Shown here: positions 3,359-29,692 of the stretch, piece after piece
How the letters are laid out: each line of letters begins with the position of its first letter
Numbering within the stretch: the first letter of the stretch is position 1
From: an uncultured Dehalococcoidales bacterium
Lineage (GTDB): Bacteria > Chloroflexota > Dehalococcoidia > Dehalococcoidales > UBA2162
DNA length: 46,783 bases
Reading direction: 5' to 3'
NCBI GenBank assembly: GCA_964463875.1
Contig: CAYXEG010000003.1
Location: 1-46,783, forward strand
The notes under the pieces: generated by a model
What the model was told of the DNA's origin: nothing
Seen by the model: the letters and a program-made list of their open reading frames with translations, nothing else
Database searches by the model: none
Translations under genes and position numbers: made by a program

Positions 3359-3967
3359 ATGGACAGGAAAATGTGGGTCTACGCGGGGTTAATCCTGGTC
3401 GTTGCGGTGGCGATGGGAATCGGCATCTGGCAGGTCACGTCGCCGAAAAATCCGGTGACAATTCCGGAGAGCGAGCCGATAGTGCAGATGGATGTCAGCT
3501 TCCCCGAAGGAGGCACGCTCAGCCAGCTATCCATTTACGAAGACGGAACGGTCATTCACATCGAAGACTCGGCTGCGGTAGCAGCGCTCAAACCGGGAGA
3601 TGCATTTACCCGAACGTGGCGGACGGGAAAAGCGAAGACAGGAGATATCGATTACCTGTTCAGCTATCTGGAATCGGTTGACTTTAATGATATCGAGACT
3701 ACCTATATATCGGAAAGCTTATCGGAACGTGTCCTGGCTGAAACTGCGGACAATGTCACGGAAATATCCCTGGAGACCGATAATTACATCAGAATATCCG
3801 CCGATAACGGTCCTGTGGATAACGTGGTAGCCGCCTTCGGGTATCTGCAACCGGGTACCGGTGCGATATCCGAACTGCCCTACCCGCTCAACAATATCTA
3901 TGCCGAACTGGCTGAAATCATCGAAAACAGCACCGAGAAAGTCCTGACGGAAGAGCTGACGAAATAA
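3359..3967 (+). CDS. membrane-anchored hypothetical protein (family A domain)
   Basis: AGGAGG lies 4 nt upstream of the ATG. N-terminal TM helix VYAGLILVVAVAMGIGIW. The body shares a domain with the C-terminal half of the next gene (QMDVSFPEGGTLSQLSIYEDGTVIHIED versus VMQLSYMMQGSQQEIRVFKDGSVLHILE). Confidence 0.7.
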   Translation: MDRKMWVYAGLILVVAVAMGIGIWQVTSPKNPVTIPESEPIVQMDVSFPEGGTLSQLSIYEDGTVIHIEDSAAVAALKPGDAFTRTWRTGKAKTGDIDYLFSYLESVDFNDIETTYISESLSERVLAETADNVTEISLETDNYIRISADNGPVDNVVAAFGYLQPGTGAISELPYPLNNIYAELAEIIENSTEKVLTEELTK

Positions 3968-3985
3968 ACAACTATCTGTATTGCC

Positions 3986-5062
3986 ATGAAAAAGATACTC
4001 GTTATACTCCTCATACTGCTACTTTCAGCAGCAATAATGCTGCCGGTAACCGGTTGTTCGCGGGAAACCGACCGGCCGGACTTCGGCGGTTATACGCCCG
4101 GCATCATTTATGTCGATTACGTTCACGGATACGAAAGCCTCGCTGAACTGGCAGTCGACGCCGACCTGATAGTTGCCGGAACAATCGACCGGACTCTCGA
4201 AACGGTACCGGACGAGGCCACGAAAGACAAGCAAGACCCGAGGTCCTGGATGTGGCAGACGCGGTCGGCCTTCAAGGTGGAGAAATCGGTCAAAGGGGAC
4301 TGCCCGGAAGAAATCATCGTCTCGCAGGAGGGAGCCGTCGGCTGGGCGCAGGAAGAAGGAAATCCGGTATTCCAGCCGGGCGAAGGGTGCTTCCTTTTCC
4401 TGAAGAAAGGTGAGAACGATATCTATTGGCTCCTCCATCCGGACGGACGGTTCAGGATAGAGGATAATTCCGTCTATTCGCTCAATTTCGTGCTGCAGAC
4501 CGGCGAAGCCCGGCCGCCCCTGGACCTCCGGTTCTGGAACATCAATACAGATAAGTTTTGCTCTAAAGTCATTGAAGCTATCAAGGAAGAATTAATCATC
4601 CCGAATGAAGAGCCGGTTATCGTCATGCAACTTTCGTACATGATGCAGGGAAGCCAGCAGGAAATTCGGGTATTTAAAGACGGCAGTGTTCTGCACATTC
4701 TGGAAAAAGGGTTACGATTCCCCTCTCCGGGACATCCGGCTGTCAGAATATGGAAGACCGGGAACATTTCTCCGGAGGGTTACGGAGAGGTACGAAGCTT
4801 CATCGACTCGGCTGGTTTCCTTGCACTCGATGAGCATTACCAGGTTCCCGGAACAGAACAGGTAACCAGCGATCTGCATTTCACCATCTCCGTCAAAGGC
4901 GAAAGTACCGGTAAGACAGTTACGGCTTCAGGTTATTTCACTCCGGATACCGATTATCGGATGAACCTTTTACCTCCGCCGCTCGACGAGATATACTTGA
5001 AACTCATCGGGATAGCCGAAAACGAGACGAAAGAACTGTATCGTGAGCAAATATCCGGGTAA
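3986..5062 (+). CDS. putative lipoprotein (family A domain in C-terminal half)
   Basis: Signal peptide MKKILVILLILLLSAAIMLPVTGC with a lipobox-like VTGC. The C-terminal half is homologous to the 3359-3967 product. Confidence 0.7.
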   Translation: MKKILVILLILLLSAAIMLPVTGCSRETDRPDFGGYTPGIIYVDYVHGYESLAELAVDADLIVAGTIDRTLETVPDEATKDKQDPRSWMWQTRSAFKVEKSVKGDCPEEIIVSQEGAVGWAQEEGNPVFQPGEGCFLFLKKGENDIYWLLHPDGRFRIEDNSVYSLNFVLQTGEARPPLDLRFWNINTDKFCSKVIEAIKEELIIPNEEPVIVMQLSYMMQGSQQEIRVFKDGSVLHILEKGLRFPSPGHPAVRIWKTGNISPEGYGEVRSFIDSAGFLALDEHYQVPGTEQVTSDLHFTISVKGESTGKTVTASGYFTPDTDYRMNLLPPPLDEIYLKLIGIAENETKELYREQISG

Positions 5063-5065
5063 CGA

Positions 5066-6928
5066 ATGGATTATCAACAAAAAACAATAAAGAAAAGAAG
5101 ATGGCGGCTAACGCTGATGGTGATACCGTTAGTTGTTACTTTATCGTTTTTCACCTCTTGTAAACCGGGCATGGCCGAACTCCAGGAAATTGAGAAAGAA
5201 ACAATCGAACTGATGGAGAGCCTTAGGCAACCGTATGAAACCGAAATAAACAGCTACTCCGGCAAGGTTGAGGTATACGTTCCTGACGTATACAGGCTCG
5301 GGAAAGCTCTCGACGAGGCGGGAAAAAGGTTGCCGGAAAAGGTGACGGCAATCGAACGCATCCCGCCGCCGGAGGGGTTGAATCCGGACCCGTCCGTTCA
5401 CTTCCCGCAATTCATCGTCCGCCCGGTAACGTACATGACGGCCGATTTCACCGGCAATCTCGAACTGAAGAACGGCTATCTCTATGCGGGAGAGCACATC
5501 ATCATCTGGCTTCCCGGCTATTTCGTTCACAACAATAACGGAACAATCGAGGTATGGGACAGGGACGGAACCGTCGTCGGCCGGGTCGGCGAACCGATAT
5601 CGATGGGCGGCGGCATATCCGAACTCGGTAACTACATTCTCCTTCTGAAAGAACCCCTTTCGCCGGAAGCTGACGGCCCGTTCTGGTTTCAGGCAGGGGC
5701 CCGAATGAGCCTGAACTTTGAATCAGACTATTTCAACCTGGAAATAATCGACTATAACAATCAGAGCTACTCCTTCGTCACAATGAAGAAACCGCTGGAA
5801 GAAACGGGAGGAAGGCATTACCCTGTTGCAGGTACCCTGGCTGCCGGCGGACAATACGGTTGCCGGTGTGCCTGCATTGTTGTTTTCGACGAATCCGATT
5901 CGACAACGATTATCGGACAGTACACTCCCCTCTGGCCGTCCGATTTCACCGCCCGGGTTGAAAACGGAGTACTGCAAATTATGGATGGAAACGGGGTTGT
6001 CGTGGCGAGAGACGGGGAAGAGATAACCGTCGAAGCCATAAAAGTAACGAATAATTACAACGAACTCTTCACCCGACTCCGCAACGAGATGCCGGGCGAA
6101 TGCTTTTACACGAATCTGCTGGTAGAAAGGGTGATACAAGGAGAAGCAGGAAAAAGACTCTCTGAGGAATCCACCCCGGTCACCTTCGATGAAACCGGAA
6201 GACAGACCCCGGAAGAAATCCTGTCCGGGTTACCGGTGTATCCCGGTTCGGTGCCTGTAGAAAATCCTCCGCCGGAAGAAAACCCGTCAGAACCAGCGGC
6301 GTCATCGAACGAAACGGTGCGATACCGTACCGCTTCGGCGAAATACGAGGTCGATGCCGATTTAGATGACCTCATCGACTGGTACGAAGGGTATTTCAAA
6401 GAATCCGGATTTCATTTTAAGACGGGTTTTACTACCGGAAAATCCTTCGGTGAAGTAACCGGCCGGGGATTGACCTACTGGCTGCCCGCGCAACCGGCTG
6501 TAAGCGTGGAGGTCACCGCCCGCCCGAAGGATGACCCGTCGTCATCGGTGTACGAACTGCTGGTCTCAGAAGACCTTCGCATTGCCCGGCCGTATGATGA
6601 AAATTTGATTCCTTCGGATATCGAACGAATCGATATCGAGTACCGGGGATGGGAGCCGGTAACGGTAACCGGGGAGGCGGATATCGAAGCGCTGACCGGA
6701 CTGGTCAACACCCTGCCGCTCGACCCCGAATACGCGCGATTCGGACCGCTGCCCGAACCCGACATTATAGAATTTTCGCTGGCGTTCCATTCCGCGTCAC
6801 AGGGTACGATTACGCTTTTCGAACGCAACAATCAAGTATACATCGAAGGGCATCCCGTTCTGTGGGACACGCACGCCCTTCTGATGAGAAAAGTAAGAGA
6901 GATTGGACAAATCGAGGAAACACCATGA
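5066..6928 (+). CDS. putative lipoprotein, 620 aa (family B domains plus GLPVYP module)
   Basis: Signal/anchor RWRLTLMVIPLVVTLSFFTSC. Two segments are clearly homologous to the 7252-8685 product. A C-terminal module is shared with the 18665-20140 product. Confidence 0.75.
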   Translation: MDYQQKTIKKRRWRLTLMVIPLVVTLSFFTSCKPGMAELQEIEKETIELMESLRQPYETEINSYSGKVEVYVPDVYRLGKALDEAGKRLPEKVTAIERIPPPEGLNPDPSVHFPQFIVRPVTYMTADFTGNLELKNGYLYAGEHIIIWLPGYFVHNNNGTIEVWDRDGTVVGRVGEPISMGGGISELGNYILLLKEPLSPEADGPFWFQAGARMSLNFESDYFNLEIIDYNNQSYSFVTMKKPLEETGGRHYPVAGTLAAGGQYGCRCACIVVFDESDSTTIIGQYTPLWPSDFTARVENGVLQIMDGNGVVVARDGEEITVEAIKVTNNYNELFTRLRNEMPGECFYTNLLVERVIQGEAGKRLSEESTPVTFDETGRQTPEEILSGLPVYPGSVPVENPPPEENPSEPAASSNETVRYRTASAKYEVDADLDDLIDWYEGYFKESGFHFKTGFTTGKSFGEVTGRGLTYWLPAQPAVSVEVTARPKDDPSSSVYELLVSEDLRIARPYDENLIPSDIERIDIEYRGWEPVTVTGEADIEALTGLVNTLPLDPEYARFGPLPEPDIIEFSLAFHSASQGTITLFERNNQVYIEGHPVLWDTHALLMRKVREIGQIEETP

Positions 6929-7245
6929 ACGAACAGAACAACAAACAAGACAAACGCCTGACGGCAATCACGGTAACCGGACTGATACTGGTTTTCGCGC
7001 CGGTCAGTTCGGTGATAATCACGCTGATGTACTCGTTTTTCAGAAACATCGAGAAGCGGGTACAACCGGCAATCGGCCTTACCTCGGATATCGTTATTCA
7101 CAGCGGCATCGAGGCCGACACCTTTTTCACGGCGGCGGCGATTACCTTCGCCCTCGGGCTTATTGTTCTCTCATGGGTTGTTTTCAGGAAAGTCGCTGGA
7201 AAAGCGCATGATGAACAGGCAGCTCTACCTCCGGAAAGGGAGTGA
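6925..7245 (+). CDS. small membrane protein (2 predicted TM helices), 106 aa
   Basis: The ATG at 6925 overlaps the upstream TGA stop (ATGA coupling). Hydrophobic stretches ITVTGLILVFAPVSSVIITLMY and FFTAAAITFALGLIVLSWVVF. Confidence 0.55.
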   Translation: MNEQNNKQDKRLTAITVTGLILVFAPVSSVIITLMYSFFRNIEKRVQPAIGLTSDIVIHSGIEADTFFTAAAITFALGLIVLSWVVFRKVAGKAHDEQAALPPERE

Positions 7246-7251
7246 CGAACG

Positions 7252-8685
7252 ATGAAAAAAACTGCCATACTCTGGTTGCTGGCAACCCTGCTGACAGTAA
7301 CGGGTTCCTGCGCTCCTTCAATCAGTGAAACAGCCCCGCAAACCGGCTCCGCAAGCCCGCCTCCTGCAGAAAAGAATATGCAGGAACAGATGAACGAACT
7401 GGCAGAGAAGTACCGGGACGACCCGGAGAAGTTCGACGCGGCAGTCTACGCCCTTCATGAAGGCGTAACGGTCGAAGAAGCGGTACGAAGGTTCGAACTT
7501 TCAAATGACGCCGGTTCTCTCAAGGCGGTCATTGTCGAGAACGAAGAAACCTACGCCGGGAGCTGGATACAGCACCAGCCTGAGTATAAGTTTGTCTTTG
7601 CCTTCACTGAAAACGGCGAGGAGATAATCAGGAAGTACGTAAAAGAAGACTCTCCGCTCGCCGGGCTTATCGAGCTCCGCATCTTCGATACCAGCTACCG
7701 CGAACTCAAACAAGCCCAGGAGGAGACGATGCAACTTCTCAAAGACGTGAACCTCGATTTTTTCTGCCCTACCAGTATCGATATCAAAGAAAACACTGCG
7801 ATAGTCTACGTGAGCGACATCAAACTGTTCAACGAGATACTGAACAAGGCTGTAATTGAGCTCCCACCCCATGTCACCCCGGAAATTACTTACGAGCCTC
7901 TTGAAGAAGTCCCCTTTGACGTAACTCCGCCAGAGAAGACCGTTTACTTTCCGCAATTAATAATGCGCGGCGGGACTGCATTAAGCAGTTGTGCCAGAGA
8001 GCTTGTCCTCAAGGATGGTTACCTGCGCTTCGATGATGCCATAATTATCTGGCAGCCGGACTATTTTCTGAACGACGATAATGGGACTATCGAAGTGATT
8101 GACCGGGAGGGTAAGGTGGTGGCGCAGGAAGGTAAAGAGGTTTACATGACCTGCGGGGGACTGGCAACAGTCGAAGAAGTAAACAAATACCTGAAGGATT
8201 CGCTGCCGGACGACTTCGAAAGCCCTTTTATTATACAGGGCCACGGGACCAGGCTGAACCTGAATTTTTCATCCGAGCTCTTCAGTATCGAAATCACTCC
8301 TTATCAGGGACATGATTTCTATACATTCCATAAAAGGCCGCTGATCGATGAAAAGACCGGCCGCAGTGAGCTACTCACCGGGAAACTGCAAGCTAATTAC
8401 AGCGAGCAACATTTCATGAGGTATCCGGTTTTCATCGTTGACATGGACGGCTATGGAATGGAGTGTGCTGTCATCTGGCCGGCAGAGTATGAAGCGCGGA
8501 TACAGGACGGCACGTTCGAAATTGCAGATAAATCAGGGGCCGTTCTTGTCAAAAACGGACAAACGATTACGATTGAAGGCGAGGTTTTTCCTGGCATCAA
8601 CTCTCCGCTCGCCAGCCGCCTGTATGAAGAGCTACCCGACGGGTGCAAACAGCCTTACCTGGTTATTAAGAGGGTATTGAAGTGA
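7252..8685 (+). CDS. putative lipoprotein, 477 aa (family B)
   Basis: Signal MKKTAILWLLATLLTVTGSC. YFPQLIMRGG..LVLKDGYLRFDDAIIIWQPDYFLNDDNGTIEVIDREGKVV aligns with HFPQFIVRPV..LELKNGYLYAGEHIIIWLPGYFVHNNNGTIEVWDRDGTVV of the 5066 product. A second homologous block follows. Confidence 0.75.
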   Translation: MKKTAILWLLATLLTVTGSCAPSISETAPQTGSASPPPAEKNMQEQMNELAEKYRDDPEKFDAAVYALHEGVTVEEAVRRFELSNDAGSLKAVIVENEETYAGSWIQHQPEYKFVFAFTENGEEIIRKYVKEDSPLAGLIELRIFDTSYRELKQAQEETMQLLKDVNLDFFCPTSIDIKENTAIVYVSDIKLFNEILNKAVIELPPHVTPEITYEPLEEVPFDVTPPEKTVYFPQLIMRGGTALSSCARELVLKDGYLRFDDAIIIWQPDYFLNDDNGTIEVIDREGKVVAQEGKEVYMTCGGLATVEEVNKYLKDSLPDDFESPFIIQGHGTRLNLNFSSELFSIEITPYQGHDFYTFHKRPLIDEKTGRSELLTGKLQANYSEQHFMRYPVFIVDMDGYGMECAVIWPAEYEARIQDGTFEIADKSGAVLVKNGQTITIEGEVFPGINSPLASRLYEELPDGCKQPYLVIKRVLK

Positions 8686-8722
8686 AAGAACTGATTCAAA
8701 ACAAATAATGCCGGAGGGATAA

Positions 8723-8776
8723 ATGGAATACAGAAAAATGAAAAAACGCGCTCGTGCATCGAGAGGTCGTTCATGA
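8723..8776 (+). CDS. possible 17-aa basic upstream ORF (MEYRKMKKRARASRGRS)
   Basis: GGAGGG lies 5 nt upstream of the ATG at 8723. Its TGA overlaps the ATG of the 8773 gene (ATGA). It shares RKMKK and the nucleotides GAAAATGAAAAA with a second mini-ORF at 12010. It may be non-functional. Confidence 0.2.
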   Translation: MEYRKMKKRARASRGRS

Positions 8777-10167
8777 GAAAAATACTACCGATACTACTGC
8801 TGCTACTCATCGGGGTACCCTTTCTCGCCGGTTGTCCGGGGGCAATAGACGGCCGACCGCCGGAATACTCGGTGGCGAACCCGAGCCTGCTGACGCTGCC
8901 GAACAACTCCAGCATTTTCGTCAGCTACCAGGTCAACCGGGGGAATTCCGGGGAGACGTACCTTCAAAGGTTAGAATTGAACGGTGAAGCCCGATTCTGG
9001 GGTACCAACGGGCTGGAGTTAAGTACGAGCCAGTGGGGTTTCTACGGCAGCGACCGGGAATGCGCCGCGCTGATACCCGACAACGCAGGGAATCTCATCG
9101 CCGTCTACCCGCTCGATGACGGCCTGAAAGCGCAAAAACTGAACACGAAAGGTGATTCCATCTGGCCGGAAGGCGAAGTGCCGGTATCCGGGGAAAAAGT
9201 GTTACCGAACCGGTTCAAAGCAGTCAGCGACCGGGCGGGAGGCGCCCTTATCATCTCTGTTTCGGAAGAAGACCGCCTCACCCTTCGGAGAATAGATACT
9301 CATGGCGACCTGCTGTGGACAACCTCTCTCTCGGAGGAAGCGGACAGGTTCGATATCGCGGTCGATACGAACGGCACCGATTTCGTTATCTGGAAAGACC
9401 GGCCGCCATACAGCGAGGGGGATTTCTTCGTCCAGGTCGTTAATGCAAACGGTGCGATTGTCGGCGAAAACGGCGGATTGCGGCTGACCGACGAGAACAA
9501 CCCCGGGTCGTTCACGAATAATTTCGAAAACCGGATTGTTGCCGACGGCAGCGGCGGAGCGGTGGTTATCTGGGCGGAAGCGATTTTTACCGAAGACCGG
9601 GGCGGCATTACCGGCCACCGGCTGTTCGCCCAGCGGATTGACGGGCAAGGTGAACCTGTGTGGCAGGATGGCGGGCGGCTCGTGACCGGAAGCGACCGGA
9701 TACAAAATCCGCAGATTGTCGAAAGCGAGCCGGGAACGTTCCTGATTTTATGGTCGGATATACGGCGTATCTACGGGCAGAAGATTGACGCCTCCGGCAC
9801 CATCGCCTGGACCGGGGAAGGACGGGAACTGGCCCTGTCCGGAAGCGTCCTGTACTTCACCGTCGCCGGCGACGATGACGGCGGAGCGGTGCTCGCCTGG
9901 AATGACGAACGCCTCTGTGCCCAGAGAATAGACAGCAATGGTTCGAAGCTCTGGGGAGACGAAGGCATAGACGTTTCATCGGCTCCTCCCTACTGGGGAG
10001 AGTACTCGGTGCCGGCACGGGTTTCACCGGACGGCCGGGGTAACTTCATCATCGCCTGGGCATCAGGCAGCACCATCAAGGCGAAGACAACCTCATGGGT
10101 CCAAAAAATAAGCGCTCAGGGCGAACCGCTGTGGGGAAAAGACGGCGTCAGGCTCGGGCTGAAGTAA
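8773..10167 (+). CDS. putative lipoprotein with about 8 repeats of a G-x-x-x-W-G-x-x-G motif (beta-propeller-like; family C)
   Basis: Signal MRKILPILLLLLIGVPFLAGC (lipobox LAGC). Recurrent motifs: NGEARFWGTNG, KGDSIWPEG, HGDLLWTT, QGEPVWQDGG, SGTIAWTGEG, NGSKLWGDEG, QGEPLWGKDG. A paralogue lies at 22107-23093 on the minus strand. Confidence 0.75.
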   Translation: MRKILPILLLLLIGVPFLAGCPGAIDGRPPEYSVANPSLLTLPNNSSIFVSYQVNRGNSGETYLQRLELNGEARFWGTNGLELSTSQWGFYGSDRECAALIPDNAGNLIAVYPLDDGLKAQKLNTKGDSIWPEGEVPVSGEKVLPNRFKAVSDRAGGALIISVSEEDRLTLRRIDTHGDLLWTTSLSEEADRFDIAVDTNGTDFVIWKDRPPYSEGDFFVQVVNANGAIVGENGGLRLTDENNPGSFTNNFENRIVADGSGGAVVIWAEAIFTEDRGGITGHRLFAQRIDGQGEPVWQDGGRLVTGSDRIQNPQIVESEPGTFLILWSDIRRIYGQKIDASGTIAWTGEGRELALSGSVLYFTVAGDDDGGAVLAWNDERLCAQRIDSNGSKLWGDEGIDVSSAPPYWGEYSVPARVSPDGRGNFIIAWASGSTIKAKTTSWVQKISAQGEPLWGKDGVRLGLK

Positions 10168-10180
10168 AAGAAAGGAAATA

Positions 10181-10786
10181 ATGAAACGTTACCTGAATTA
10201 TCTACTGGCTGGCATTGGAATACTCATGGTTGTCGGGGGGTCGATATCCTGCCGAAGTGCAGGCATACCCAGCACTTCGACGAACAGTGATGTGCTTAGT
10301 TACCGGGGTTTTTACCTCAGCGCCGAAGAGGTCGGCCTGACTACCTTTACTCAAGGAACGGTATTCGTCAGGGGAGACAGGGATAACCCGGAGGAAATGA
10401 GGGTCCAGATTGTCGCCCGGGTAGAAATCGATACCGAGGATTTCGGCGGTGTCAGTTTCAATATCCCTCAGGGGTGGAAGGTGGCGACGGTGGTTTCCGA
10501 TTACCCCCAGGGAAACCCGGCTCCGGAAATCTACACGGTCAGCCTGCAAACCGCTGATGAAACGGTGACCTGGCCGGTGATTGTCGAGGTCGGGCGCACC
10601 TCACACATAGCCGGGCAAGCTAACCCGCAGGGCGGAACAGGTACCCTGATTATCGAGCTGTCTCCGGCGTTATCCGGCAGGGAACTCCCGGAAGACATCG
10701 ATATTCTCATCGCCGCCGGCAGTAAAATACCCTCCACTGTCGATGCCGTCCACATGACCCTCAGTATTCCCTTGAACGAGGGCTAA
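10181..10786 (+). CDS. putative secreted protein or lipoprotein, hypothetical
   Basis: N-terminal hydrophobic segment LLAGIGILMVVGGSISC. Tightly packed in the co-directional cluster. I did not recognise a family. Confidence 0.6.
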   Translation: MKRYLNYLLAGIGILMVVGGSISCRSAGIPSTSTNSDVLSYRGFYLSAEEVGLTTFTQGTVFVRGDRDNPEEMRVQIVARVEIDTEDFGGVSFNIPQGWKVATVVSDYPQGNPAPEIYTVSLQTADETVTWPVIVEVGRTSHIAGQANPQGGTGTLIIELSPALSGRELPEDIDILIAAGSKIPSTVDAVHMTLSIPLNEG

Positions 10787-10814
10787 CGTATGAATAGAGG
10801 ACAATGAAGACGTT

Positions 10815-11993: not shown

Positions 11994-12009
11994 TAGAGAG
12001 GCTCGAGCA

Positions 12010-12069
12010 ATGAACCGGAAAATGAAAAAGCTGATAACAACAGGAGTAGCGCTGCTGTTGCATGAATAA
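12010..12069 (+). CDS. possible 19-aa mini-ORF (MNRKMKKLITTGVALLLHE), signal-peptide-like remnant or leader peptide
   Basis: GAGAGG lies upstream. It looks like a truncated signal peptide and sits in the 94-nt gap before the LuxE-like gene. Confidence 0.15.
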   Translation: MNRKMKKLITTGVALLLHE

Positions 12070-12087
12070 GAAAAAGGTACCGATGGT

Positions 12088-13485: not shown

Positions 13486-13498
13486 CGGGAAGCGCACT

Positions 13499-15025: not shown

Positions 15026-16060
15026 ATGAAAACAAAGCTGACTATTTGCATTCTGGCGATACTGCTGGCCGGTTCGGCGGGTTGTACCAAGGATGTTGAT
15101 ACAGCCGCAACAAACGATGATGAATCATCCGCCGGCGGCTGGGAACTGGTCTATGAAGCCGATAACGGCAGCCAGCTAAGAGATCTCTATTTTTCCGACG
15201 ACAATAACGGCTGGGCATGCGGCAGCGCCGGACTGCTCCTCCACACCCCGGACGGAGGGGATACCTGGTACCAGGTCGAAACCGGGACGGAGAACGACCT
15301 GACCTGCCTGCATTTCTTCAATGATAAAAAGGGGGTAATTGCCAGTCTTCAGGCAAGCATCGGCGCCACGTCTGACGGCGGGAAAAACTGGCAATGGCAG
15401 AAACCGGAACTACTCGGCAAAGGCGGTTACCTGGACGTCTTTTTTACCGACCGGCGGAACGGTTGGCTGGTCAGCAACGTCGGGACAATACTCCGGACGA
15501 GAGACGGCGGGGCAACCTGGGAAAAACAGGAAAGCGGGACGACCCGGCACCTGGCGGCCGTCTTTTTCATCGATGCGAAAACCGGCTGGATAATCAGCGA
15601 GCGTTCCGTCCTCAGCACCACCGACGGCGGGAAAAACTGGAATAAAACACAACCGGACGTCTCCCTGGCAAGCGGTACCTTCTTTACCGATATCTACTTT
15701 ATCGATAAGCAGGAAGGCTGGATTACCACCACCGCCATGGCAAGTTCCCTGTGGGAAGCGACGGCAACCCTGCTTCATACCACCGACGGCGGCAGAACCT
15801 GGGCGGCTGCGCCCTCCCCGCCGGAAAAATGGCTGAAAGCCGTCATCATGACCGACAACACGACCGGCTGGCTGGCCGGCAGCGAGCACCTCTCCTACAC
15901 GAATGACGGAGGCGCAACCTGGACGGCGCGGCTGGACAGCGGCGGCGACCCGTTCGTCGATATCGTCATCACCGAAAACAACCGGCTCTACGCCCTCACC
16001 TTCACGGGTAAAATCTACCGGCACCCTGATGCCCTGCGGGTGGGAAAAACCGGAGTATAG
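15026..16060 (+). CDS. lipoprotein with six BNR/Asp-box (DGG-x-TW) repeats, Ycf48-like/sialidase-like beta-propeller
   Basis: Lipobox LAGSAGC. Repeats: PDGGDTW, SDGGKNW, RDGGATW, TDGGKNW, TDGGRTW, NDGGATW. Its ATG directly abuts the LuxC TAA stop (15023-15028 TAAATG). Confidence 0.8.
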   Translation: MKTKLTICILAILLAGSAGCTKDVDTAATNDDESSAGGWELVYEADNGSQLRDLYFSDDNNGWACGSAGLLLHTPDGGDTWYQVETGTENDLTCLHFFNDKKGVIASLQASIGATSDGGKNWQWQKPELLGKGGYLDVFFTDRRNGWLVSNVGTILRTRDGGATWEKQESGTTRHLAAVFFIDAKTGWIISERSVLSTTDGGKNWNKTQPDVSLASGTFFTDIYFIDKQEGWITTTAMASSLWEATATLLHTTDGGRTWAAAPSPPEKWLKAVIMTDNTTGWLAGSEHLSYTNDGGATWTARLDSGGDPFVDIVITENNRLYALTFTGKIYRHPDALRVGKTGV

Positions 16061-16101
16061 GAGAAAAGCCAATCGTTTACGCGACGAGGCTGGAGAAGTA
16101 A

Positions 16102-16632
16102 ATGAAAAAAATATCGATAATTCAGATAGCCGCCGGAGCATTGCTGATTGCTTCCTACTTTATATTCATCAGACTGGTGCAGCCGGGATATTACAGGATG
16201 GAAATTCTGGATATCAACGGAGTAATCATCGGCGGTTCTATAGGCAGCCCGTCATGGGCGGTTACGCCGGCGCTGGTTATCTGGACGGCCGGTTACCCGC
16301 TGCTTGGAATACTGGTGACCGGCTGCGGGGTATCGCGGCTCATTAAAAACTACCGGGGACAGGCAACAAGGAAGCTGGATATCGCCCAGGTTGTTTTCGG
16401 TGCTCTCCTCCTGGCCTTGATGATTATGTTCGTGACAAGCTATGAGCCTCACTGGCCGAATTACGCATCAACAAAGGTAATACAAGGTTTCCCCGGAGCC
16501 GTCGAAGTCCGCCATAACCCCGGATGGGTTGCCGGGATGAACGCGTGGAAAATAGGCATGTTCTGCCTCGGCCCGGTCATTACCGCCAGCGGGGGATGGA
16601 CTCTATTGAAATCGAGAAAGATTGAACGATGA
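16102..16632 (+). CDS. integral membrane protein, hypothetical (about 5 TM)
   Basis: Multiple hydrophobic helices (IIQIAAGALLIASYFIFI, ALVIWTAGYPLLGILVTGCG, VVFGALLLALMIMFV, IGMFCLGPVITASGGW). Its stop overlaps the next ATG (ATGA at 16629). Confidence 0.65.
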   Translation: MKKISIIQIAAGALLIASYFIFIRLVQPGYYRMEILDINGVIIGGSIGSPSWAVTPALVIWTAGYPLLGILVTGCGVSRLIKNYRGQATRKLDIAQVVFGALLLALMIMFVTSYEPHWPNYASTKVIQGFPGAVEVRHNPGWVAGMNAWKIGMFCLGPVITASGGWTLLKSRKIER

Positions 16633-17747
16633 AAGTAACGTTGTATTCGCTGATTCTGATGCTATTAACGGTTGCAGGTATCACCACCGCCTGCACCCCC
16701 CCGGAACAGCCGTACCTGATGCCGGTCACGGACTTTTCTTTCACCGGTTTGTGGGATGAGATTCAGGAAACCACGGGGGCAAGCGGCAACCAGACGCACC
16801 TTCAGTCCTTCGATTTGCGAATCAAGAATGATAAAGTAATGTCCGGTTCTGCCAGATTCAGCTCTATCGATAACGCGGGGCATGATATCTTTTACAGGGT
16901 TGATACGGATACCAGGGGAAAACTGCAATGGAACGGCCGGGGCACGAAAGATATTCTACCGCCCATAGGCCTCAGGTATGACCCGGCAAAAACCTTCGCC
17001 GAACTTGACCGTCTCGGGGTAGAGGCAGTTATCGATAGCGCCCGGAGTGTCGGCGTAAGAATCGAGAATATCTACAATGAACGGCAGTATGACTACGCTG
17101 ATATGTTCCGGCTGGATGACGGTGAATTACTGCCGCTGCGGGAAGCTTCTTTCCCGAAGGACGCCGTGGCAGTACAGATTCAGGTTGACCGGTCCTACGA
17201 GCGGGAAGAAGCGGCTCCTTTCGCCCTCGGCAGATTCAGAGTGACGAGCGAATGGTGGTTCACCGGGAACGACCTCGAAAAGGCCGATTCGGTCGTATTC
17301 GCGAAAAACCGGCAGGGGCCGGAATTCGTCGGTTTCCTCAAAGGCGTTTATGAGGCATTGCCGGAAGGCTGGGAAATGAGCCTCAGTACCCATGAAGGAC
17401 ACATGAATCCGCCGGAGGGACTGGAAGAACCGCTTTTCGTCCTGATTTTCGAAGATACGGTCAATTCGTTCACCCTGCCGGCCGACCCGGCGAACACTCC
17501 GATTGTTCCCGGCCTGCGGCTCTTTTTCTACGACATCGCTGAAAAAGAAGCCCGCATGGAAAAAATCGAACAGCAGCAGCAATACTCGTGGGATATTCCG
17601 GTTTACTACGACGAAAGTCCTTTGTACCTTGCCGTCACCTCGCCGGTGTATATCAATTCCGGCCATTACGGAGAGGAAGAAATAACGTATTACCGGGTGC
17701 TGGAGAAAGCGCTGAAGGAATTTTTCGATGGAGAAAGAACCGAATAA
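16629..17747 (+). CDS. putative lipoprotein (family D)
   Basis: Signal LILMLLTVAGITTAC. FTGLWDEIQETTGASG.. and YADMFRLDDGELLPLREASFP align with the next gene product. Confidence 0.7.
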   Translation: MKVTLYSLILMLLTVAGITTACTPPEQPYLMPVTDFSFTGLWDEIQETTGASGNQTHLQSFDLRIKNDKVMSGSARFSSIDNAGHDIFYRVDTDTRGKLQWNGRGTKDILPPIGLRYDPAKTFAELDRLGVEAVIDSARSVGVRIENIYNERQYDYADMFRLDDGELLPLREASFPKDAVAVQIQVDRSYEREEAAPFALGRFRVTSEWWFTGNDLEKADSVVFAKNRQGPEFVGFLKGVYEALPEGWEMSLSTHEGHMNPPEGLEEPLFVLIFEDTVNSFTLPADPANTPIVPGLRLFFYDIAEKEARMEKIEQQQQYSWDIPVYYDESPLYLAVTSPVYINSGHYGEEEITYYRVLEKALKEFFDGERTE

Positions 17748-17765
17748 CATAGCGAGGAGATACCG

Positions 17766-18479
17766 ATGAAACGAAAACCCGGACGTATACTACTGGCGGG
17801 GCTGTGCCTGCTGTCAATCATTGTTGTCACTTTTATTCCGGGCTGCAACAACATTCAGTGGTCTTCTCAAATAAACAGCTCCATACATGAACTCACTCTT
17901 ACAGAGTTATGGAATACCATCGCAGCTACAACAGCTATCCAGGAACCGAGCGCAGAAATGGGGACGTTTTCGATGAATGTCGAGCCGGATGGTGAACTCT
18001 CATTTTTGGATTTCACCTTCTCGGGAAGAAATAACAACGGAAAACCATGCGTGTATTTCGTCGGTTTCGGGCACAGGAGCAGGATTTCCGTAAAAAGTTA
18101 TGAAATCGATGATATTATCGTCAGCCGGCATCCGGCATCGGTGTTCGAGGAAATCGATATGTACGGACTGGACTCCATTGAAACGGGTGAGGGAGGATTA
18201 AGGATGATTATCTCATTTCAAGCCGGTAGTCTCGTTTACCGAAGAAGCGAGGCTGACCTGTTTCATCTTGAAAAAGGAGAACTTCTGCCTTTGGAGGAAA
18301 TTATGTTCAGCGGTCAAAACCAGCATTGTACCGTAAGCCTGTTGAAACTTGCCCCGAATAAACCGGTATCCACGACAGCCGCGGCTCCGATGCTGCCGGG
18401 TGAAAGAGCTAACGAAATATGGTTTCTCGATGAAGATATCAGCCTGGCCGAGACGGTTGTTTACTGGAATGAGAACTGA
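17766..18479 (+). CDS. putative lipoprotein (family D)
   Basis: GAGGAG RBS. Signal ILLAGLCLLSIIVVTFIPGC. LTELWNTIAATTAIQ and EADLFHLEKGELLPLEEIMFS are homologous to the 16629 product. Confidence 0.7.
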   Translation: MKRKPGRILLAGLCLLSIIVVTFIPGCNNIQWSSQINSSIHELTLTELWNTIAATTAIQEPSAEMGTFSMNVEPDGELSFLDFTFSGRNNNGKPCVYFVGFGHRSRISVKSYEIDDIIVSRHPASVFEEIDMYGLDSIETGEGGLRMIISFQAGSLVYRRSEADLFHLEKGELLPLEEIMFSGQNQHCTVSLLKLAPNKPVSTTAAAPMLPGERANEIWFLDEDISLAETVVYWNEN

Positions 18480-18578
18480 ATCACTATGTCCGTGGAGAAG
18501 AAGGTGAGAATAGGATATCCCGGAAGGCGGGCCCCAAAATCCCTCTTCGGAGGTGTTGAGTAAGGTTGATGGTTCTGC

Positions 18579-18613
18579 TTCTCCCTTTAAAAGGGAGAAT
18601 GAGAGGGATTTTT
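18579..18613 (+). terminator. rho-independent terminator candidate / REP-like element copy C
   Basis: Hairpin TTCTCCCT (18579-18586) / AGGGAGAA (18592-18599), followed by TGAGAGGGATTTTT. An outer arm AAATCCCTCT at 18537-18546 can pair with AGAGGGATTT. Confidence 0.5.
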
Positions 18614-18664
18614 GTGTACCTGCGATATTTTATGCGCGTTCCTTCCGGAGGTTGATAATCGATT

Positions 18665-20140
18665 ATGAAAAGAATAGTGTTGAAAATTCTATTGCTGGCA
18701 GCCGCCATGGCGCTGTTGTTCACCGGGGCTTCCTGTAACCGGACCTCCGGCGATGCTTTTAACGAAGATAACCTCATACCGGAAAAGGTACTCGCCGGAC
18801 TTCCGGTCTATCCTGATGCAGCCATGACCACGGAAGATGGGACCGGGTTCAAGCCGTTTTCAACGCCGCTGTCACCTCAGGTCGAAGGCCGGCCGCCGGA
18901 AATCGTCTACGAGACCGTATCCCGGCAGTATACCTCGGAAGCTGAACCGGATTCGATTCTGAAATGGTACCGGAGCAAACTGACCGGCAAAGGTTATCAG
19001 GTCTATTCCGAGACGAGCTATTTCGACTTCGACGACTTTAATATACACAACAAAACAGAAACTTCGACAACACAACAGATACAAAGAGCGGATATTATTC
19101 ACGTAAGCGGTGAAGTCCATAGTTTAGGATTCTATCGTCCCAAGTTAACGCTCATCAGTATCGAAGTGCATGCCTGTTCAACAACCGGGAAAACAATCTT
19201 CGCCGTCATCGTCAACCGGGATACGACCACTCCGGCTGAACCGGAGGTAATGAAGCTGTCAACCGGTATAATTTCGTATTCCGGCTTCAAGCAGGAGGCG
19301 AGTGTCCGTATCGGCGAACCGAGAAAGGATGCTCCGGTCATTCTTACCATAGCTAATAGCGGAGACGTCAGGTACGGCACTCAGCAGTTCGATGTATCCG
19401 GTCGTGAGTTGTCCGAAATTCCGGAAAGCGACCTGGAACCGGCATCGATTCCCACGAACAGGCTCCTGCCGGCAGGTACGGCCGGTATTTACCAGATAGT
19501 ACATCTGAAAGACCGTTACGAAGACAGGCTGCTCTTCGAAGCGAAGAAAAGCAATGACGGGCCGCCGGATTACCTGATTACGGACAACGCCGGAGCAGTT
19601 CTCTATACCCTGCCGATGAACTACCTGATCACCCGGTATAGATACGAAGCCTGCCTGGTCGAAAACGGCCTGGCGGTTTACTACGGCACCAATGTACTGA
19701 ATTCACGACTGAAGAAGTATTCGTATGACGGAAGTATCGTCTGGTCGGCAGAGGTTCCCCTGACAGGCAGTCCCCACCTCAGCCGAATTCAGGATAACGG
19801 CAGCGAACTGCTGGCACTCCGGATACAGAGCAGTGATAATGAACATTATGTCGGCTACTTCACCGCCGAAAACGGCACGATGTTTCTAGAAAACAAGTTT
19901 ACTGACGACAGGCGGGTTCAGGTAACCGATAAAGCAGGTTACTACTATCTCTTTACCGAATGGCCGGAATACTACGAAATGGCGGTTCCGCCGGGAAGAA
20001 TCAGTTTATTCTATGGTAACGAAGAAGCAGCCTATGCGGACGTATCCGAAGGCATCTACTACTTCGCTGCCTCGCCTGACGGCCGCTACTTCGCGGTGGT
20101 GACGAGAAACAGGTTGTCGATATTTTCGTTTACGGAATAA
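18665..20140 (+). CDS. putative lipoprotein, 491 aa (N-terminal GLPVYP module; C-terminal beta-propeller-like region)
   Basis: Signal ILLLAAAMALLFTGASC. VLAGLPVYPDA..SILKWYRSKLTGKGYQV parallels ILSGLPVYPGS..DLIDWYEGYFKESGFHF in the 5066 product. A TolB-like ASPDGRYFAVV motif lies near the C-terminus. Confidence 0.7.
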   Translation: MKRIVLKILLLAAAMALLFTGASCNRTSGDAFNEDNLIPEKVLAGLPVYPDAAMTTEDGTGFKPFSTPLSPQVEGRPPEIVYETVSRQYTSEAEPDSILKWYRSKLTGKGYQVYSETSYFDFDDFNIHNKTETSTTQQIQRADIIHVSGEVHSLGFYRPKLTLISIEVHACSTTGKTIFAVIVNRDTTTPAEPEVMKLSTGIISYSGFKQEASVRIGEPRKDAPVILTIANSGDVRYGTQQFDVSGRELSEIPESDLEPASIPTNRLLPAGTAGIYQIVHLKDRYEDRLLFEAKKSNDGPPDYLITDNAGAVLYTLPMNYLITRYRYEACLVENGLAVYYGTNVLNSRLKKYSYDGSIVWSAEVPLTGSPHLSRIQDNGSELLALRIQSSDNEHYVGYFTAENGTMFLENKFTDDRRVQVTDKAGYYYLFTEWPEYYEMAVPPGRISLFYGNEEAAYADVSEGIYYFAASPDGRYFAVVTRNRLSIFSFTE

Positions 20141-20149
20141 CCAGAAAAC

Positions 20150-20179
20150 TTGACGAATACTACCGGAATGGACTATTGT
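20150..20179 (+). promoter_or_regulatory. weak promoter candidate (TTGACG-18 nt-TATTGT)
   Basis: Hexamers at 20150-20155 and 20174-20179 in the 108-nt gap before the glycine-zipper genes. Confidence 0.25.
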
Positions 20180-20248
20180 TTCAGTAAGGTATTGGTTATC
20201 AGTGAAGTACCGGACAATACAATGATGACCGTACCGGAGGTGAATGGT

Positions 20249-20614
20249 ATGAACAAAAACAGGTTACGCAGTTTCCTCTATCTTCTGGTTTTCATGCATT
20301 TTTTCGACCCGTTCGCCTACAAGACAACCGTTGAAGGTGAGGCCCGGATAAAAGACCGTGACCCGCGCGACCCGAACCAGGCGCCAAAGCCGGGAAAAGG
20401 CGACAGCTACCTGCTGGGGGCGACGTTTCTCGGCATCATCCTCGGCGGCGTCGCCGGATTCCTCATCGCCTATCACGGTTTCGGCAACCACATGGTAGTC
20501 CTCGGCATTTTTGGCGGGATACTGGCCGGAGGCCTGGCCGGCATCTCTATCGGAAGCCGGCTGAAAAAGAAGAAACAGCAGGAAGCCGACGACGGACCGA
20601 GTGCAGGAGTATAG
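20249..20614 (+). CDS. glycine-zipper membrane protein (family F), 121 aa
   Basis: GGAGGTG RBS lies 6 nt upstream of the ATG at 20249, which I prefer over the TTG at 20150. G-x-x-x-G-rich helices LGATFLGIILGGVAGFLIA and LGIFGGILAGGLAGISIG are followed by KKKKQQ. Confidence 0.6.
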   Translation: MNKNRLRSFLYLLVFMHFFDPFAYKTTVEGEARIKDRDPRDPNQAPKPGKGDSYLLGATFLGIILGGVAGFLIAYHGFGNHMVVLGIFGGILAGGLAGISIGSRLKKKKQQEADDGPSAGV

Positions 20615-20620
20615 AAAACA

Positions 20621-21007
20621 GTGGTACAATACAGTCAGACCATGACCGGCGTACCCGGAATCGCCCTCCACCTCTATCAGAATCCTTTCCAGTTCCGGGA
20701 GACGGTAGAGCGGGAAACCCTGGCTTCAGGCGGGCGTGGTAACGGCAAAAGGCCGCACCGGGACCCACGGGACTATTGGGTATATATCGGGGCGGTCGCC
20801 GGTATCATTGTCGGCTGTACCGCCGGAGCGATAATCGGAGCGTCAACCGCCGGTCTCGGCGGTATATTCCTGGGAATTGTCGCCGGGATGTTCGTCGGCG
20901 GGCTGGGTGGCTCATGGGTCGGCGAGCAGATTAAAAAGAAAAAATACGCCCGTAAAAAAGTAAACAGGAAAGAGACGGCGCCCGGCAAGGGGCCGTTCAT
21001 CGGATAA
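20621..21007 (+). CDS. glycine-zipper membrane protein (family F paralogue)
   Basis: IGAVAGIIVGCTAGAIIGASTAGLGGIFLGIVAGMFVGGLGGSWVG is followed by QIKKKKY. It shares a DPRD motif with the preceding gene. The start is uncertain (GTG 20621 or ATG 20642). Confidence 0.55.
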   Translation: MVQYSQTMTGVPGIALHLYQNPFQFRETVERETLASGGRGNGKRPHRDPRDYWVYIGAVAGIIVGCTAGAIIGASTAGLGGIFLGIVAGMFVGGLGGSWVGEQIKKKKYARKKVNRKETAPGKGPFIG

Positions 21008-21010
21008 CGC

Positions 21011-21865
21011 ATGATAGAAATTGGGGTAAATCCGGTCATATTCGGTACCGTCCGGTGGTACGGGGTGCTGGTGGCGCTCGGTATTGCCGTGCTGGTAGCA
21101 TGGTTAATCTGGCACGTCAGGAAAGACCCGTACAAGCGAATTACGCCCGACATGGTGCTCATCGCAGCCATAGTCGGTATCCCGGCCGGGGTGATTGTTT
21201 CGAGGGCGATTCACGTTATCGATTTATGGAGCTACTACAGCCGGTTTCCGGGAGAAATCATCGGCGGCGACGGCCTGACCATCTGGGGAGCGATTCTCGG
21301 CGGCACCCTCGGCATCCTGATAACGAGCCGGTTCACCAAATTCGATTTCGGCTATTTCTCAGATATCGTGGCCCCCGGCCTGATACTTGCCCAGATAATC
21401 GGGAGAATCGGCTGCACCATCAACGGCTGCTGCTACGGCGACGAATGTTCGCTCCCCTGGAGTATTATCTACACCCACCCAGAAACGTACGGGCCGATGA
21501 CTTACGCTGTTCATCCGACGATGGTTTACGAGATTATTTTCCTGGCGGTATCATTCGGCATTATCATGTTCCTGCGGGGGCGCATTAAACCGGACGGCTC
21601 CCTCTACATGATTTACCTCTGCCTCTACTCGGTTTGGAGAATCATCAACGGCTTCCTCAGGGAAGGGACCGATTTCCTCTTCGGCCTCCATCAGGCGCAG
21701 ATAATCGGCATCCTGCTCCTCCTCATCATCATCCCGATACTGGTCATGAAAACCCGCTGGGGCAAGCCGGAAGTACCGGTAATGGCAGCGGATGATGCAC
21801 AGGACGAAACAGTACCCGAACTGCCTCCGGCTGAGAAGGAAGGGAATAGCGAGGGAGAAGAGTAA
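21011..21865 (+). CDS. lgt: prolipoprotein diacylglyceryl transferase
   Basis: Typical Lgt features: N-terminal IFGTVRWYGVLVALG, GLTIWGAILGG, and ILAQIIGRIGCTINGCCYG. Multi-TM. An acidic C-terminal tail is present. Confidence 0.85.
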   Translation: MIEIGVNPVIFGTVRWYGVLVALGIAVLVAWLIWHVRKDPYKRITPDMVLIAAIVGIPAGVIVSRAIHVIDLWSYYSRFPGEIIGGDGLTIWGAILGGTLGILITSRFTKFDFGYFSDIVAPGLILAQIIGRIGCTINGCCYGDECSLPWSIIYTHPETYGPMTYAVHPTMVYEIIFLAVSFGIIMFLRGRIKPDGSLYMIYLCLYSVWRIINGFLREGTDFLFGLHQAQIIGILLLLIIIPILVMKTRWGKPEVPVMAADDAQDETVPELPPAEKEGNSEGEE

Positions 21866-23093: not shown

Positions 23094-23164
23094 ATATCGT
23101 CGTCCTTCGAATAACACCCATTCCCTATATGAATCAAGCCCTATAGTATCACAAATAATACGGC

Positions 23165-23222
23165 AACACACATACGCAACATATAGAACAAATAAGCGTA
23201 TGAAAAGACAGTGAGGTATGCT
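23165..23222. repeat. imperfect direct repeat R2 (pairs with 22040-22100)
   Basis: See R1. R2 sits at the transition to low-GC DNA. Confidence 0.5.
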
Positions 23223-23276
23223 ATAAAGAACATTTATGATTAAGCCCTATTTTTTAGAAAACAGCTTATTTGAATT

Positions 23277-23720: not shown

Positions 23721-23792
23721 TCAAGTAATCGGGGATATCGCATCGTACCTTGAAATGGTCAGGAACTTATCGACGATTAGTTCGGATAATGC

Positions 23793-29690: not shown

Positions 29691-29692
29691 GC

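Follow-up and report, generated by a model that had tools for sequence, protein, structure and literature searches.

LuxE and LuxC together convert a free fatty acid to an aldehyde with ATP and NADPH. Lipobox-bearing proteins are exported, diacylglycerylated on a cysteine by Lgt, cleaved by signal peptidase II and tethered at the outer face of a single membrane; lipoproteins require Lgt, and one Lgt serves all the lipoproteins of a cell in trans. In the wall-less Mollicutes, such proteins are encoded in tandem co-directional multigene arrays that consist of paralogous families and vary in content between strains. Cultured Dehalococcoidales and Dehalococcoidia have no peptidoglycan, and the covering of the single membrane of the Dehalococcoidales, abundant and mostly uncultured subsurface bacteria, is poorly known. 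The residues C364, Lys238 and Arg355 have been named in the LuxE of Photobacterium phosphoreum (PMC9157457), LuxE and LuxC homologues have been described in the polar flagellin glycosylation islands of Aeromonas, where the authors suggest a lipid (liposugar) component (PMC7874193), and the annotated S-layer protein of Dehalococcoides mccartyi is a BNR/Asp-box protein (PMC6646388). Here we describe a run of 18 genes (g1 to g18) within 46,783 nucleotides of DNA from an uncultured Dehalococcoidales bacterium (assembly GCA_964463875.1, contig CAYXEG010000003.1, positions 1 to 46,783; hereafter the window), in which a LuxE-LuxC pair (LuxEC) lies among lipoprotein genes and lgt comes last. A previous sequence-only reading had joined Lgt, LuxEC and the lipoproteins into one dedicated cell-surface system. 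Comparison with related loci leads us to a different reading, to which we give a probability of about 0.65: the run is a composite of three units lying side by side, not one envelope-building machine.

Three proposed units in one gene run

The list of open reading frames (ORFs) contains 18 consecutive plus-strand ORFs from 3359 to 21865 in an unbroken run. Their intergenic spacing lies between -4 and 185 bp, with ATGA overlaps at both 6925 and 16629 and a TAAATG junction at 15023-15028. The sequence-only reading had described this co-directional layout with tiny gaps or overlaps, and both the ORF list and the junction letters bear it out. Its count of ten lipobox products is reproduced by pattern matches: g2, g3, g5, g6, g7, g8, g11, g13, g14 and g15 have an N-terminus rich in K/R that is followed by a hydrophobic segment, with a Cys at one of positions 20-32, and eight of them match PROSITE PS51257 while the other two (g2 and g14) match G+LPPv2. 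Likewise, the five proteins that it had taken as membrane-anchored (g1, g4, g12, g16 and g17) have transmembrane (TM) segments and no lipobox. The identification of LuxE, LuxC, a BNR propeller and Lgt is supported by Pfam in all four cases (LuxE, 8e-20; LuxC, 4e-44; PSII_BNR, 1e-28; LGT, 1e-45); the 14 remaining products of the run have no Pfam match, and at E <= 1 the unknown products gave only noise. BLASTP confirms four paralogous families, formed by g1 and the C-terminus of g2 (2e-16), by g3 and g5 (7e-44) together with g15, whose N-terminus matches the middle of g3 (2e-5), by g13 and g14 (2e-13), and by g16 and g17 (1e-7).

The density of lipoproteins in the run is far beyond chance, because ten lipobox ORFs among 18 have a binomial P of ~2e-6 even at a background rate of 0.10; with the same regular expressions, the loci compared gave 35 matches among 363 Dehalococcoidales ORFs, mainly from homologous arrays, and 17 among 747 ORFs of other phyla. 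One boundary has to be redrawn. The plus-strand run stands as described, whereas the lipoprotein-rich region does not end at lgt, as three more lipobox ORFs follow on the minus strand at 22107-25115.

In the reading that we favour, the first unit would be a lineage-specific array (g1-g8 and g11-g15, plus 22107-25115) that encodes surface lipoproteins and small membrane proteins. The lipobox products have Sec-type signal peptides and would be exported, lipidated by Lgt and tethered to the membrane as part of an exposed protein coat of the Dehalococcoidales cell. Array content (the propellers, g13-g14, and the modular g3/g5/g15 genes with g4) is reshuffled between genomes. The second unit would be LuxEC, which sits in the array in one Dehalococcoidales clade, neither of the two needing the other in cis. 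The third would be a housekeeping g16-g17-lgt unit on the chromosomal backbone, with Lgt acting in trans.

The lgt unit on a conserved backbone

Homologues of LuxC and Lgt at 55-92% identity come from metagenome-assembled genomes (MAGs) of Dehalococcoidales/Dehalococcoidia, and the comparison loci used throughout are MAG or metagenome contigs viewed in windows of +-10 kb. Three loci were anchored on lgt, with an Lgt 68-71% identical to that of the window: L089 (CP070832), L090 (JAFGAN010000047) and L091 (DAOULV010000022). In all three, one or two small membrane proteins (g16', g17'; the prime marks a homologue) directly precede lgt, and lgt is followed by inosine monophosphate (IMP) cyclohydrolase, RecJ, FabF (convergent), a MiaB-like radical SAM (rSAM) protein, Fer4_16, GNAT, phosphoenolpyruvate carboxykinase (PEPCK), a 219-aa protein and a major facilitator superfamily (MFS) transporter. 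The downstream backbone of the window keeps the same order and strands at 55-87% identity. Upstream, the backbone is marked by a DEAD helicase, which in L091 is a single 763-aa gene, 81% identical, 5 kb upstream of g16'-g17'-lgt; in the window it is split by a frameshift, which makes it either a pseudogene or an assembly error.

The content of the slot upstream of g16 is not conserved. Between helicase and g16, four unrelated genes are found in L091; L089 carries other genes, of metabolic function, and no array upstream of g16; and L090 has an array of g8', g4', g5', a PD40 propeller, an LVIVD propeller and g15' that runs straight into g16'-g17'-lgt and lacks LuxEC. An array thus occupies this slot in one of the three related genomes (L090 only). 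Therefore, g16-g17-lgt is a conserved housekeeping unit of the backbone and g1-g15 fill a variable slot. Because the unit occurs without an array in L089 and L091, lgt is the housekeeping copy of the backbone, and its adjacency to the array would reflect shared descent with L090, the closest backbone relative, at a variable slot rather than function. Seen from the LuxC side, more than 80 other loci, among them those of the 79-80% identical relatives, have no lgt up to 10 kb from LuxC; LuxCE is found at none of the three other lgt loci; and lgt is absent from the 13 kb that follow LuxC in L094 and from the downstream part of the L095 sequence examined. The proposal of a single dedicated system is not supported by this comparison, since lgt and LuxC are apart in more than 80 loci and the lgt backbone lacks the array in L089 and L091.

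Just beyond lgt, a low-GC block on the minus strand (22100-26630; 36-40% GC against 52-60% around it) holds the lipoprotein-rich continuation and also encodes a small membrane protein and a 388-aa secreted protein. As lgt and IMP cyclohydrolase are adjacent in L089-L091, this block at 22-27 kb reads as a second insertion.

LuxE-LuxC as an independent module

A scan of 185,579 species genomes returned 186 relatives, from which the best 80 loci were kept, with 83 loci at the counting stage; the LuxC of the window was not on record in an exact-sequence look-up. LuxE adjoins LuxC in 79 of the 83 loci, the exceptions being truncated contigs. The hosts belong to at least eight phyla (Chloroflexota, Spirochaetota, Acidobacteriota, Thermodesulfobacteriota, Myxococcota, Planctomycetota, Nitrospirota and Actinomycetota) and include Dehalococcoidia, Anaerolineae, Spirochaetia/Leptospira, Desulfatibacillum, Smithella, Nocardia and Mycobacterium. 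All-against-all clustering of the neighbouring ORFs of the 80 loci gave no third conserved partner (the largest extra neighbour 'family' consisted of antisense ORFs inside luxE and was discarded), and both lgt and the BNR protein are absent within 10 kb in all 83 LuxC loci. LuxE-LuxC is, across many phyla, a self-contained independent module.

At the residue level, g9 exceeds the Pfam LuxE (PF04443) cut-off of 24.9 bits with a score of 71.4, in an alignment limited to residues 283-462. Aligned with 7xc6_E, it keeps C456 (equivalent to C364), the K of GGGWK (K238) and R447 (R355). The match of g10 to Pfam LuxC (PF05893; 151.6 bits) covers model positions 4-400 of 401. Within its YDQKAC motif, C344 corresponds to the acylation Cys in the YDQQAC of 7xc6_A, and 21 homologues all keep this residue. 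Both proteins score far under the NCBIfam equivalog cut-offs (60.3 bits against 550 for g9 in NF052244; 105.3 against 750 for g10 in NF052251) and hence are not orthologues of the lux operon enzymes; to judge from these residues and scores, they are distant and catalytically intact members of their families. No luciferase (luxA/luxB) or LuxD domain was detected in any window ORF scanned. By analogy, LuxE would adenylate a free fatty acid, load it on its C-terminal Cys and pass the acyl group to the Cys of LuxC, from which NADPH would then release the fatty aldehyde. As LuxEC is separated from its neighbours in the window by gaps of 0-94 bp, it is probably co-transcribed with them.

Some LuxEC loci display features of their own. 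In a second Dehalococcoidales clade, LuxE-LuxC lies near heliorhodopsin and MJ1433-like genes in seven loci (L003, L008, L009, L010, L013, L048 and L069), the heliorhodopsin of L003 being ~1.4 kb downstream of LuxC. In L086 the luxE gene is split into two ORFs (8558-9980; 4463-5885 in L094, the same locus), possibly as a pseudogene or through a sequencing error; L084 and L095, which are just as close, have an uninterrupted luxE. A conserved ~425-aa protein that overlaps or abuts the LuxC stop in L046, L068 and L071 (Desulfatibacillum and relatives) may be a lineage-specific third partner. In L038, from an Anaerolineae MAG, LuxEC (3826-6841) is flanked by lipobox proteins of 1105 aa upstream and 695 aa downstream.

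Lipoprotein arrays with and without LuxE-LuxC

Homologous co-directional arrays are present in the relatives L086/L094, L090, L092, L093, L095, L001 and L004, so the dense, lineage-specific lipoprotein set pointed out by the sequence-only reading is a recurrent entity. LuxEC lies inside arrays at seven loci, namely the window, L084, L086 (= L094), L095, L001, L004 and L007. The closest LuxC relatives (78-80% identity) are those of L084, L086 (= L094, 'Chloroflexi bacterium RBG_13_46_14') and L095; in all three, LuxEC is within a co-directional lipoprotein array and a g13'-g14' pair follows 1-4 genes downstream, while the other array genes differ. In L001, L004 and L007, where LuxC is 59-63% identical, a g13/14-like gene lies directly 3' of LuxC, and L001 and L004 have more lipoprotein genes upstream of LuxEC.

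The association is separable in both directions. The g13-anchored array of L092, from the same genome as L090, has neither LuxEC nor lgt; 11 of its 13 co-directional ORFs have a lipobox, and it contains g6', g5', g13', g7' and g14'. Also free of LuxEC and lgt, L093 carries g6', g3' (55%), g4', g11' (51%), an LVIVD protein, g13' and g14', and looks like the array of the window minus LuxEC. On the other side, a lipobox ORF is lacking within 10 kb of LuxEC at 18 of the 29 loci from Dehalococcoidales, and at most loci of other phyla. In a neighbor-joining tree, the array-embedded LuxCs occupy one part of the Dehalococcoidales radiation, interspersed with those of the non-array loci L005, L085 and L053, and the second large Dehalococcoidales clade, the heliorhodopsin-adjacent one, never occurs with arrays. 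The conserved entity is the co-directional lipoprotein array, with beta-propellers, an AF_1575-like pair and the g3/g5 family; the propellers of the relatives' arrays are of LVIVD, PD40/Tricorn-like and Kelch-like types, and META-domain proteins also occur. A synteny analysis, which had been suggested as the way to check the proposed system, has a mixed outcome: the adjacency of lgt is not conserved, which is the result that the sequence-only reading had named as refuting it, and LuxEC is repeatedly found in arrays within one clade, yet is separable both ways.

Features of the individual genes

Table 1. Genes of the 18-gene run and flanking elements (lipobox residues and the position of the predicted lipidated Cys are given for the lipoproteins)
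Feature	Position	Strand	Description
Upstream backbone marker	635..2909	+	MrfA/Hrq1-type DEAD helicase; split into overlapping ORFs 635-1987 and 1860-2909 in different frames
g1	3359..3967	+	N-terminal TM anchor at 5-23, no Cys; extracellular domain paralogous to g2 C-terminal domain
g2	3986..5062	+	Lipoprotein, VTGC, Cys24; G+LPPv2 match; no Pfam match
g3	5066..6928	+	Lipoprotein, FTSC, Cys32; two fused modules
g4	6925..7245	+	Small 2-TM membrane protein; ATGA overlap with g3
g5	7252..8685	+	Lipoprotein, TGSC, Cys20; g3 paralogue
g6	8773..10167	+	Lipoprotein, LAGC, Cys21; internal repeats
g7	10181..10786	+	Small lipoprotein, SISC, Cys24; PS51257 match
g8	10815..11993	+	Lipoprotein, ATAC, Cys24
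g9	12088..13485	+	LuxE-type acyl-protein synthetase
g10	13499..15025	+	LuxC-type acyl-thioester reductase
g11	15026..16060	+	Ycf48-like BNR beta-propeller lipoprotein, SAGC, Cys20; start abuts LuxC stop (TAAATG)
g12	16102..16632	+	Membrane protein, ~4 TM; ATGA overlap with g13; no family match
g13	16629..17747	+	Lipoprotein annotated as AF_1575 family (PF27293), TTAC, Cys22
g14	17766..18479	+	Shorter putative AF_1575-family lipoprotein, IPGC, Cys27; g13 paralogue
g15	18665..20140	+	Lipoprotein, GASC, Cys24; N-terminal domain related to g3 middle
g16	20150..20614	+	Small 2-TM glycine-rich membrane protein; first gene of the g16-g17-lgt unit
g17	20621..21007	+	g16 paralogue; glycine-zipper-like membrane protein; weak NCBIfam glycine-zipper matches
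g18	21011..21865	+	Lgt, prolipoprotein diacylglyceryl transferase
Lipoprotein-rich continuation	22107..25115	-	g6 paralogue (22107-23171) and lipobox ORFs 23793-24401 and 24660-25115
Downstream backbone	27255..37455		IMP cyclohydrolase, RecJ, FabF, MiaB-like rSAM, Fer4_16, GNAT, PEPCK, 219-aa protein, MFS transporter

The start of g4 was corrected from 6649 to 6925, and the true start of g16 is probably at ~20222-20249, because its homologues, directly upstream of lgt in L089, L090 and L091, are 120-137 aa long. Modularity is clearest in g3, of which residues 35-357 are common to g5 and residues 375-616 are related to the g15 family; the modules occur separately elsewhere, in P0252 (342 aa, 77% to residues 22-357) and P0253 (302 aa, 56% to 360-616). 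The g3 family is lineage-restricted, since just 276 representative clusters among 1.84 billion match. Homologues of g5 are found in L090, L092, L093 and L004, and g4-like genes adjoin g5'/g3' in L090 and L093 and are thus conserved partners of g3/g5-like genes. For g6, a beta-propeller fold is suggested; it has homologues in L001 (42%), L086, L092, L093 and L095, and its paralogue at the other side of lgt gives several repeated matches. Further homologues are known for g1 (45%, within the L086 array), for g7 (in L092, between g13' and g14'), for g8 (42%, in the lgt-adjacent array of L090) and for g15, a relative of which also stands immediately before g16'-g17'-lgt in L090. The g11 product, which matches PSII_BNR (PF14870) with 100.9 bits against a cut-off of 27 and PDB 2xbg at 3.5e-23, is predicted to be a Ycf48-like seven-bladed propeller and has a 51% homologue in the LuxEC-free array of L093. 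The assignment of g13 and g14 to AF_1575, a recently defined Pfam family, is a precomputed annotation listed for g13 and its homologues; the pair is kept in L092, L093, L094 and L095. For g18, the match to Pfam LGT (PF01790) is 156.3 bits against 24.9, and that to TIGR00544 is 96.9, under its cut-off of 118.9.

No enzymatic domain was detected in the array products with Pfam and, for part of them, NCBIfam, and g5, g6, g13 and g14 had no NCBIfam match. A structure search, also part of the checks proposed earlier, was run for one protein. The AlphaFold2 model of g13, built on a 12-sequence alignment, reached a predicted local distance difference test (pLDDT) score of 80.8, and Foldseek found no match in PDB at E <= 1e-3 (best E-value 4e-3); its top matches (9-1-1 clamp, MucB, polyketide synthase dehydratases and LolA-like proteins) had a TM-score below 0.2 and were discarded. 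The model of g5, for which the alignment consisted of its paralogue g3 alone, was unusable (pLDDT 42.7).

Regulatory signals give little guidance. In 2800-22300, 19 promoter-like sites (11.9 +- 2.9 expected) and 25 terminator-like sites (22.1 expected) were counted, both uninformative for operon limits, and weak promoter-like matches lie before g1 and before the probable start of g16 (hexamers in 20150-20223). The GC content at third codon positions (GC3) is uneven across 3359-21865: 0.64-0.73 in g6-g11, LuxEC included, similar to the 0.71 of the backbone lgt; 0.59-0.62 in g1-g5; and 0.51-0.62 in g12-g15. These differences hint at sub-blocks with different histories.

Weighing the alternatives

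Several observations weigh against a purely composite origin of the run. Of the five loci anchored on g13, three contain LuxEC, and so does every one of the four members of the clade with 78-80% identical LuxC, which is more than expected for a pure passenger. Its junctions are tight: LuxEC directly meets g11 in the window (0 bp, TAAATG), and in L001, L004 and L095 it is separated by 20-35 bp from a lipoprotein gene (20-29 bp in the first two), so LuxEC is probably co-expressed with lipoproteins. An array abuts g16-g17-lgt in two of the four lgt-anchored loci. Moreover, lipoboxes were called by regular expressions alone (PS51257 and G+LPPv2), and, with comparison loci of the kind used here, 'absent' means absent nearby and not genome-wide. 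Some of these points favour an explanation that we regard as doubtful, in which LuxEC is functionally coupled to the array and not to lgt: its aldehyde or alcohol would go into a lipid carried or bound by array proteins, or serving as their anchor, or, in an equally doubtful variant, the array would capture exogenous lipids or fatty acids for LuxEC to activate and reduce. The presence of LuxEC inside homologous arrays at seven loci, including all four with the 78-80% identical LuxC, fits this coupling, as do the g13/14-like AF_1575 lipoprotein gene that comes directly after LuxC (L001, L004 and L007) or within 1-4 genes of it (window, L086 and L095), the use of free fatty acids by LuxE with no LuxD-type supplier found in the window, the large lipoproteins on either side of LuxEC in the Anaerolineae locus L038, and the precedent of the Aeromonas flagellin glycosylation islands (PMC7874193). 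However, homologous arrays do without LuxEC in L090, L092 and L093, most Dehalococcoidales LuxEC loci and nearly all those of other phyla have no lipoprotein neighbour, and a single ancestral placement could explain why the array-embedded LuxCs fall in one region of the tree. The g13 model, in addition, has no significant match to lipid-binding folds (best Foldseek E-value 4e-3, TM-score below 0.2).

A tentative alternative with a better claim is that the array is a hypervariable or horizontally exchanged island of surface proteins, serving for instance to escape phages or grazers, whose content is shaped by turnover and not by a common function. It would account for the reshuffling of array content between genomes with a 79% identical LuxC, for a helicase-g16 slot that differs in all four backbone relatives, for the low-GC block (36-40%) with three more lipoprotein genes inserted after lgt, for the uneven GC3 (0.51-0.73 within the cluster) and for the fusion in g3 of modules that are separate elsewhere. 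Against it, the window yielded no sign of an integrase or transposase, of a tRNA or of flanking repeats; tRNA and Rfam scans of the window were both empty, which leaves it without obvious island landmarks. The orders g13-g14, g3/g5-g4 and BNR/LVIVD-g13-g14, furthermore, are kept across genomes, which suggests functional units. The idea that Lgt, LuxCE and the lipoproteins form one dedicated surface assembly or remodelling system of a wall-less cell seems to us very improbable. It draws on the 18 co-directional genes with their tiny gaps, on the L090 array, which also abuts g16'-g17'-lgt with g15' directly before g16', and on the established requirement of lipoproteins for Lgt. It is largely contradicted by more than 80 other LuxC loci that lack lgt within 10 kb, by the lack of LuxEC in that same lgt-adjacent array of L090, by the occurrence of g16-g17-lgt without an array in L089 and L091 and, as weak evidence, by the promoter-like hexamers before the probable g16 start. 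The composite of array, LuxEC module and housekeeping lgt unit remains the explanation that we prefer.

Implications

The adjacency of lgt is an accident of the backbone and offers no basis for inferring a special lipidation system. The array families (the AF_1575 pair, the g3/g5/g15 modules, g6 and the propellers) are instead good candidates for the surface layer of the Dehalococcoidales. LuxE-LuxC pairs that are catalytically intact, as far as their residues tell, occur widely among non-luminous anaerobes, across eight or more phyla, and are uncharacterised. It is a long shot that in one clade the LuxEC product, a fatty aldehyde or alcohol, is used specifically for the array-encoded surface coat, and the roles that can be imagined for it there, alkyl or alkenyl (ether-type) anchor chains of lipoproteins or a lipid ligand of the AF_1575 pair, are just as speculative; if true, this would amount to a novel type of lipidation, of lipoproteins or of the envelope, whose genes lie together with those of its substrates. 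Many LuxEC host phyla make alkyl-glycerol ethers, and the use of LuxEC as a marker of ether-lipid producers was considered and set aside. No paper in the library searched brings LuxC, LuxE and the dehalococcoids together, and nothing relevant turned up on ether lipids in connection with LuxC/LuxE or on the envelope of Dehalococcoidia. The components (LuxCE-type reductase, Lgt, lipoprotein arrays) are of known kinds, and no paper was found on the recurrence of the arrays or on LuxEC embedded within them.

Other features of the window

Far from the run, the intergenic segment 42968-43167 (GC ~42%) contains ~16-25 copies of the 8-bp unit TTTACGYW, between a gene for a ParA/MinD-like ATPase (42156-42944, minus strand) and a putative SPFH-like gene (43284-44201, minus strand). 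These repeats could be protein-binding iterons or an element of origin or partition type. Inside the ORF at 43284-44201 (minus strand), a 33-bp coding tandem repeat of 3.8 copies (43512-43637) has an 11-residue period.

Comparison with known systems

Two single products of the run resemble well-described proteins. Compared with Escherichia coli Lgt (PDB 5azb), g18 keeps the equivalents of R143 (the R of GRIG) and of Y235 and R239 (the Y and R of LYSVWRII) and differs at H103, which is replaced by W; unlike in the E. coli Lgt/Lsp pathway, no lspA or lnt is near g18, and lgt is paired with the lineage-conserved g16 and g17. The g11 product is like Ycf48/HCF136 in being a lipobox BNR propeller with matches to Ycf48-like PDB entries at ~1e-23, and unlike Ycf48 in reaching only 115 bits against an equivalog cut-off of 326 and in coming from a host without a photosystem. 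It shares the BNR annotation with the annotated S-layer protein of D. mccartyi.

The closest counterpart of g9-g10 is the LuxC-LuxE of the P. phosphoreum lux operon (PDB 7xc6; PMC9157457), with which the pair shares gene adjacency, Pfam matches and catalytic residues, so that the chemistry to be expected would be the same (free fatty acid, ATP and NADPH giving a fatty aldehyde). The differences are equally clear: luxA, luxB and luxD are missing from the window, the order is E-C against C-D-A-B-E, g9 is ~90 aa longer than lux LuxE with the C-terminal 180 residues alone aligning, and the host is an anaerobic Dehalococcoidales bacterium. By gene context, the locus can also be likened to the Aeromonas islands, as in both a LuxE-LuxC pair is placed in a variable cell-surface locus of a non-luminous bacterium. 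The Aeromonas pair, however, sits with acyl carrier protein (ACP), ketoreductase, pse genes and glycosyltransferases, while that of the window is accompanied by lipoproteins only, without sugar or ACP genes. Finally, the array differs from those of the Mollicutes in its diverse families (propellers, AF_1575), where the latter consist of copies of one antigen, and in its unrelated phylum; phase-variation switches (repeat tracts, invertible promoters) left no sign in the part of the window examined. Both, nevertheless, are tandem, co-directional and paralogous gene sets that encode lipid-anchored surface proteins in wall-less hosts.

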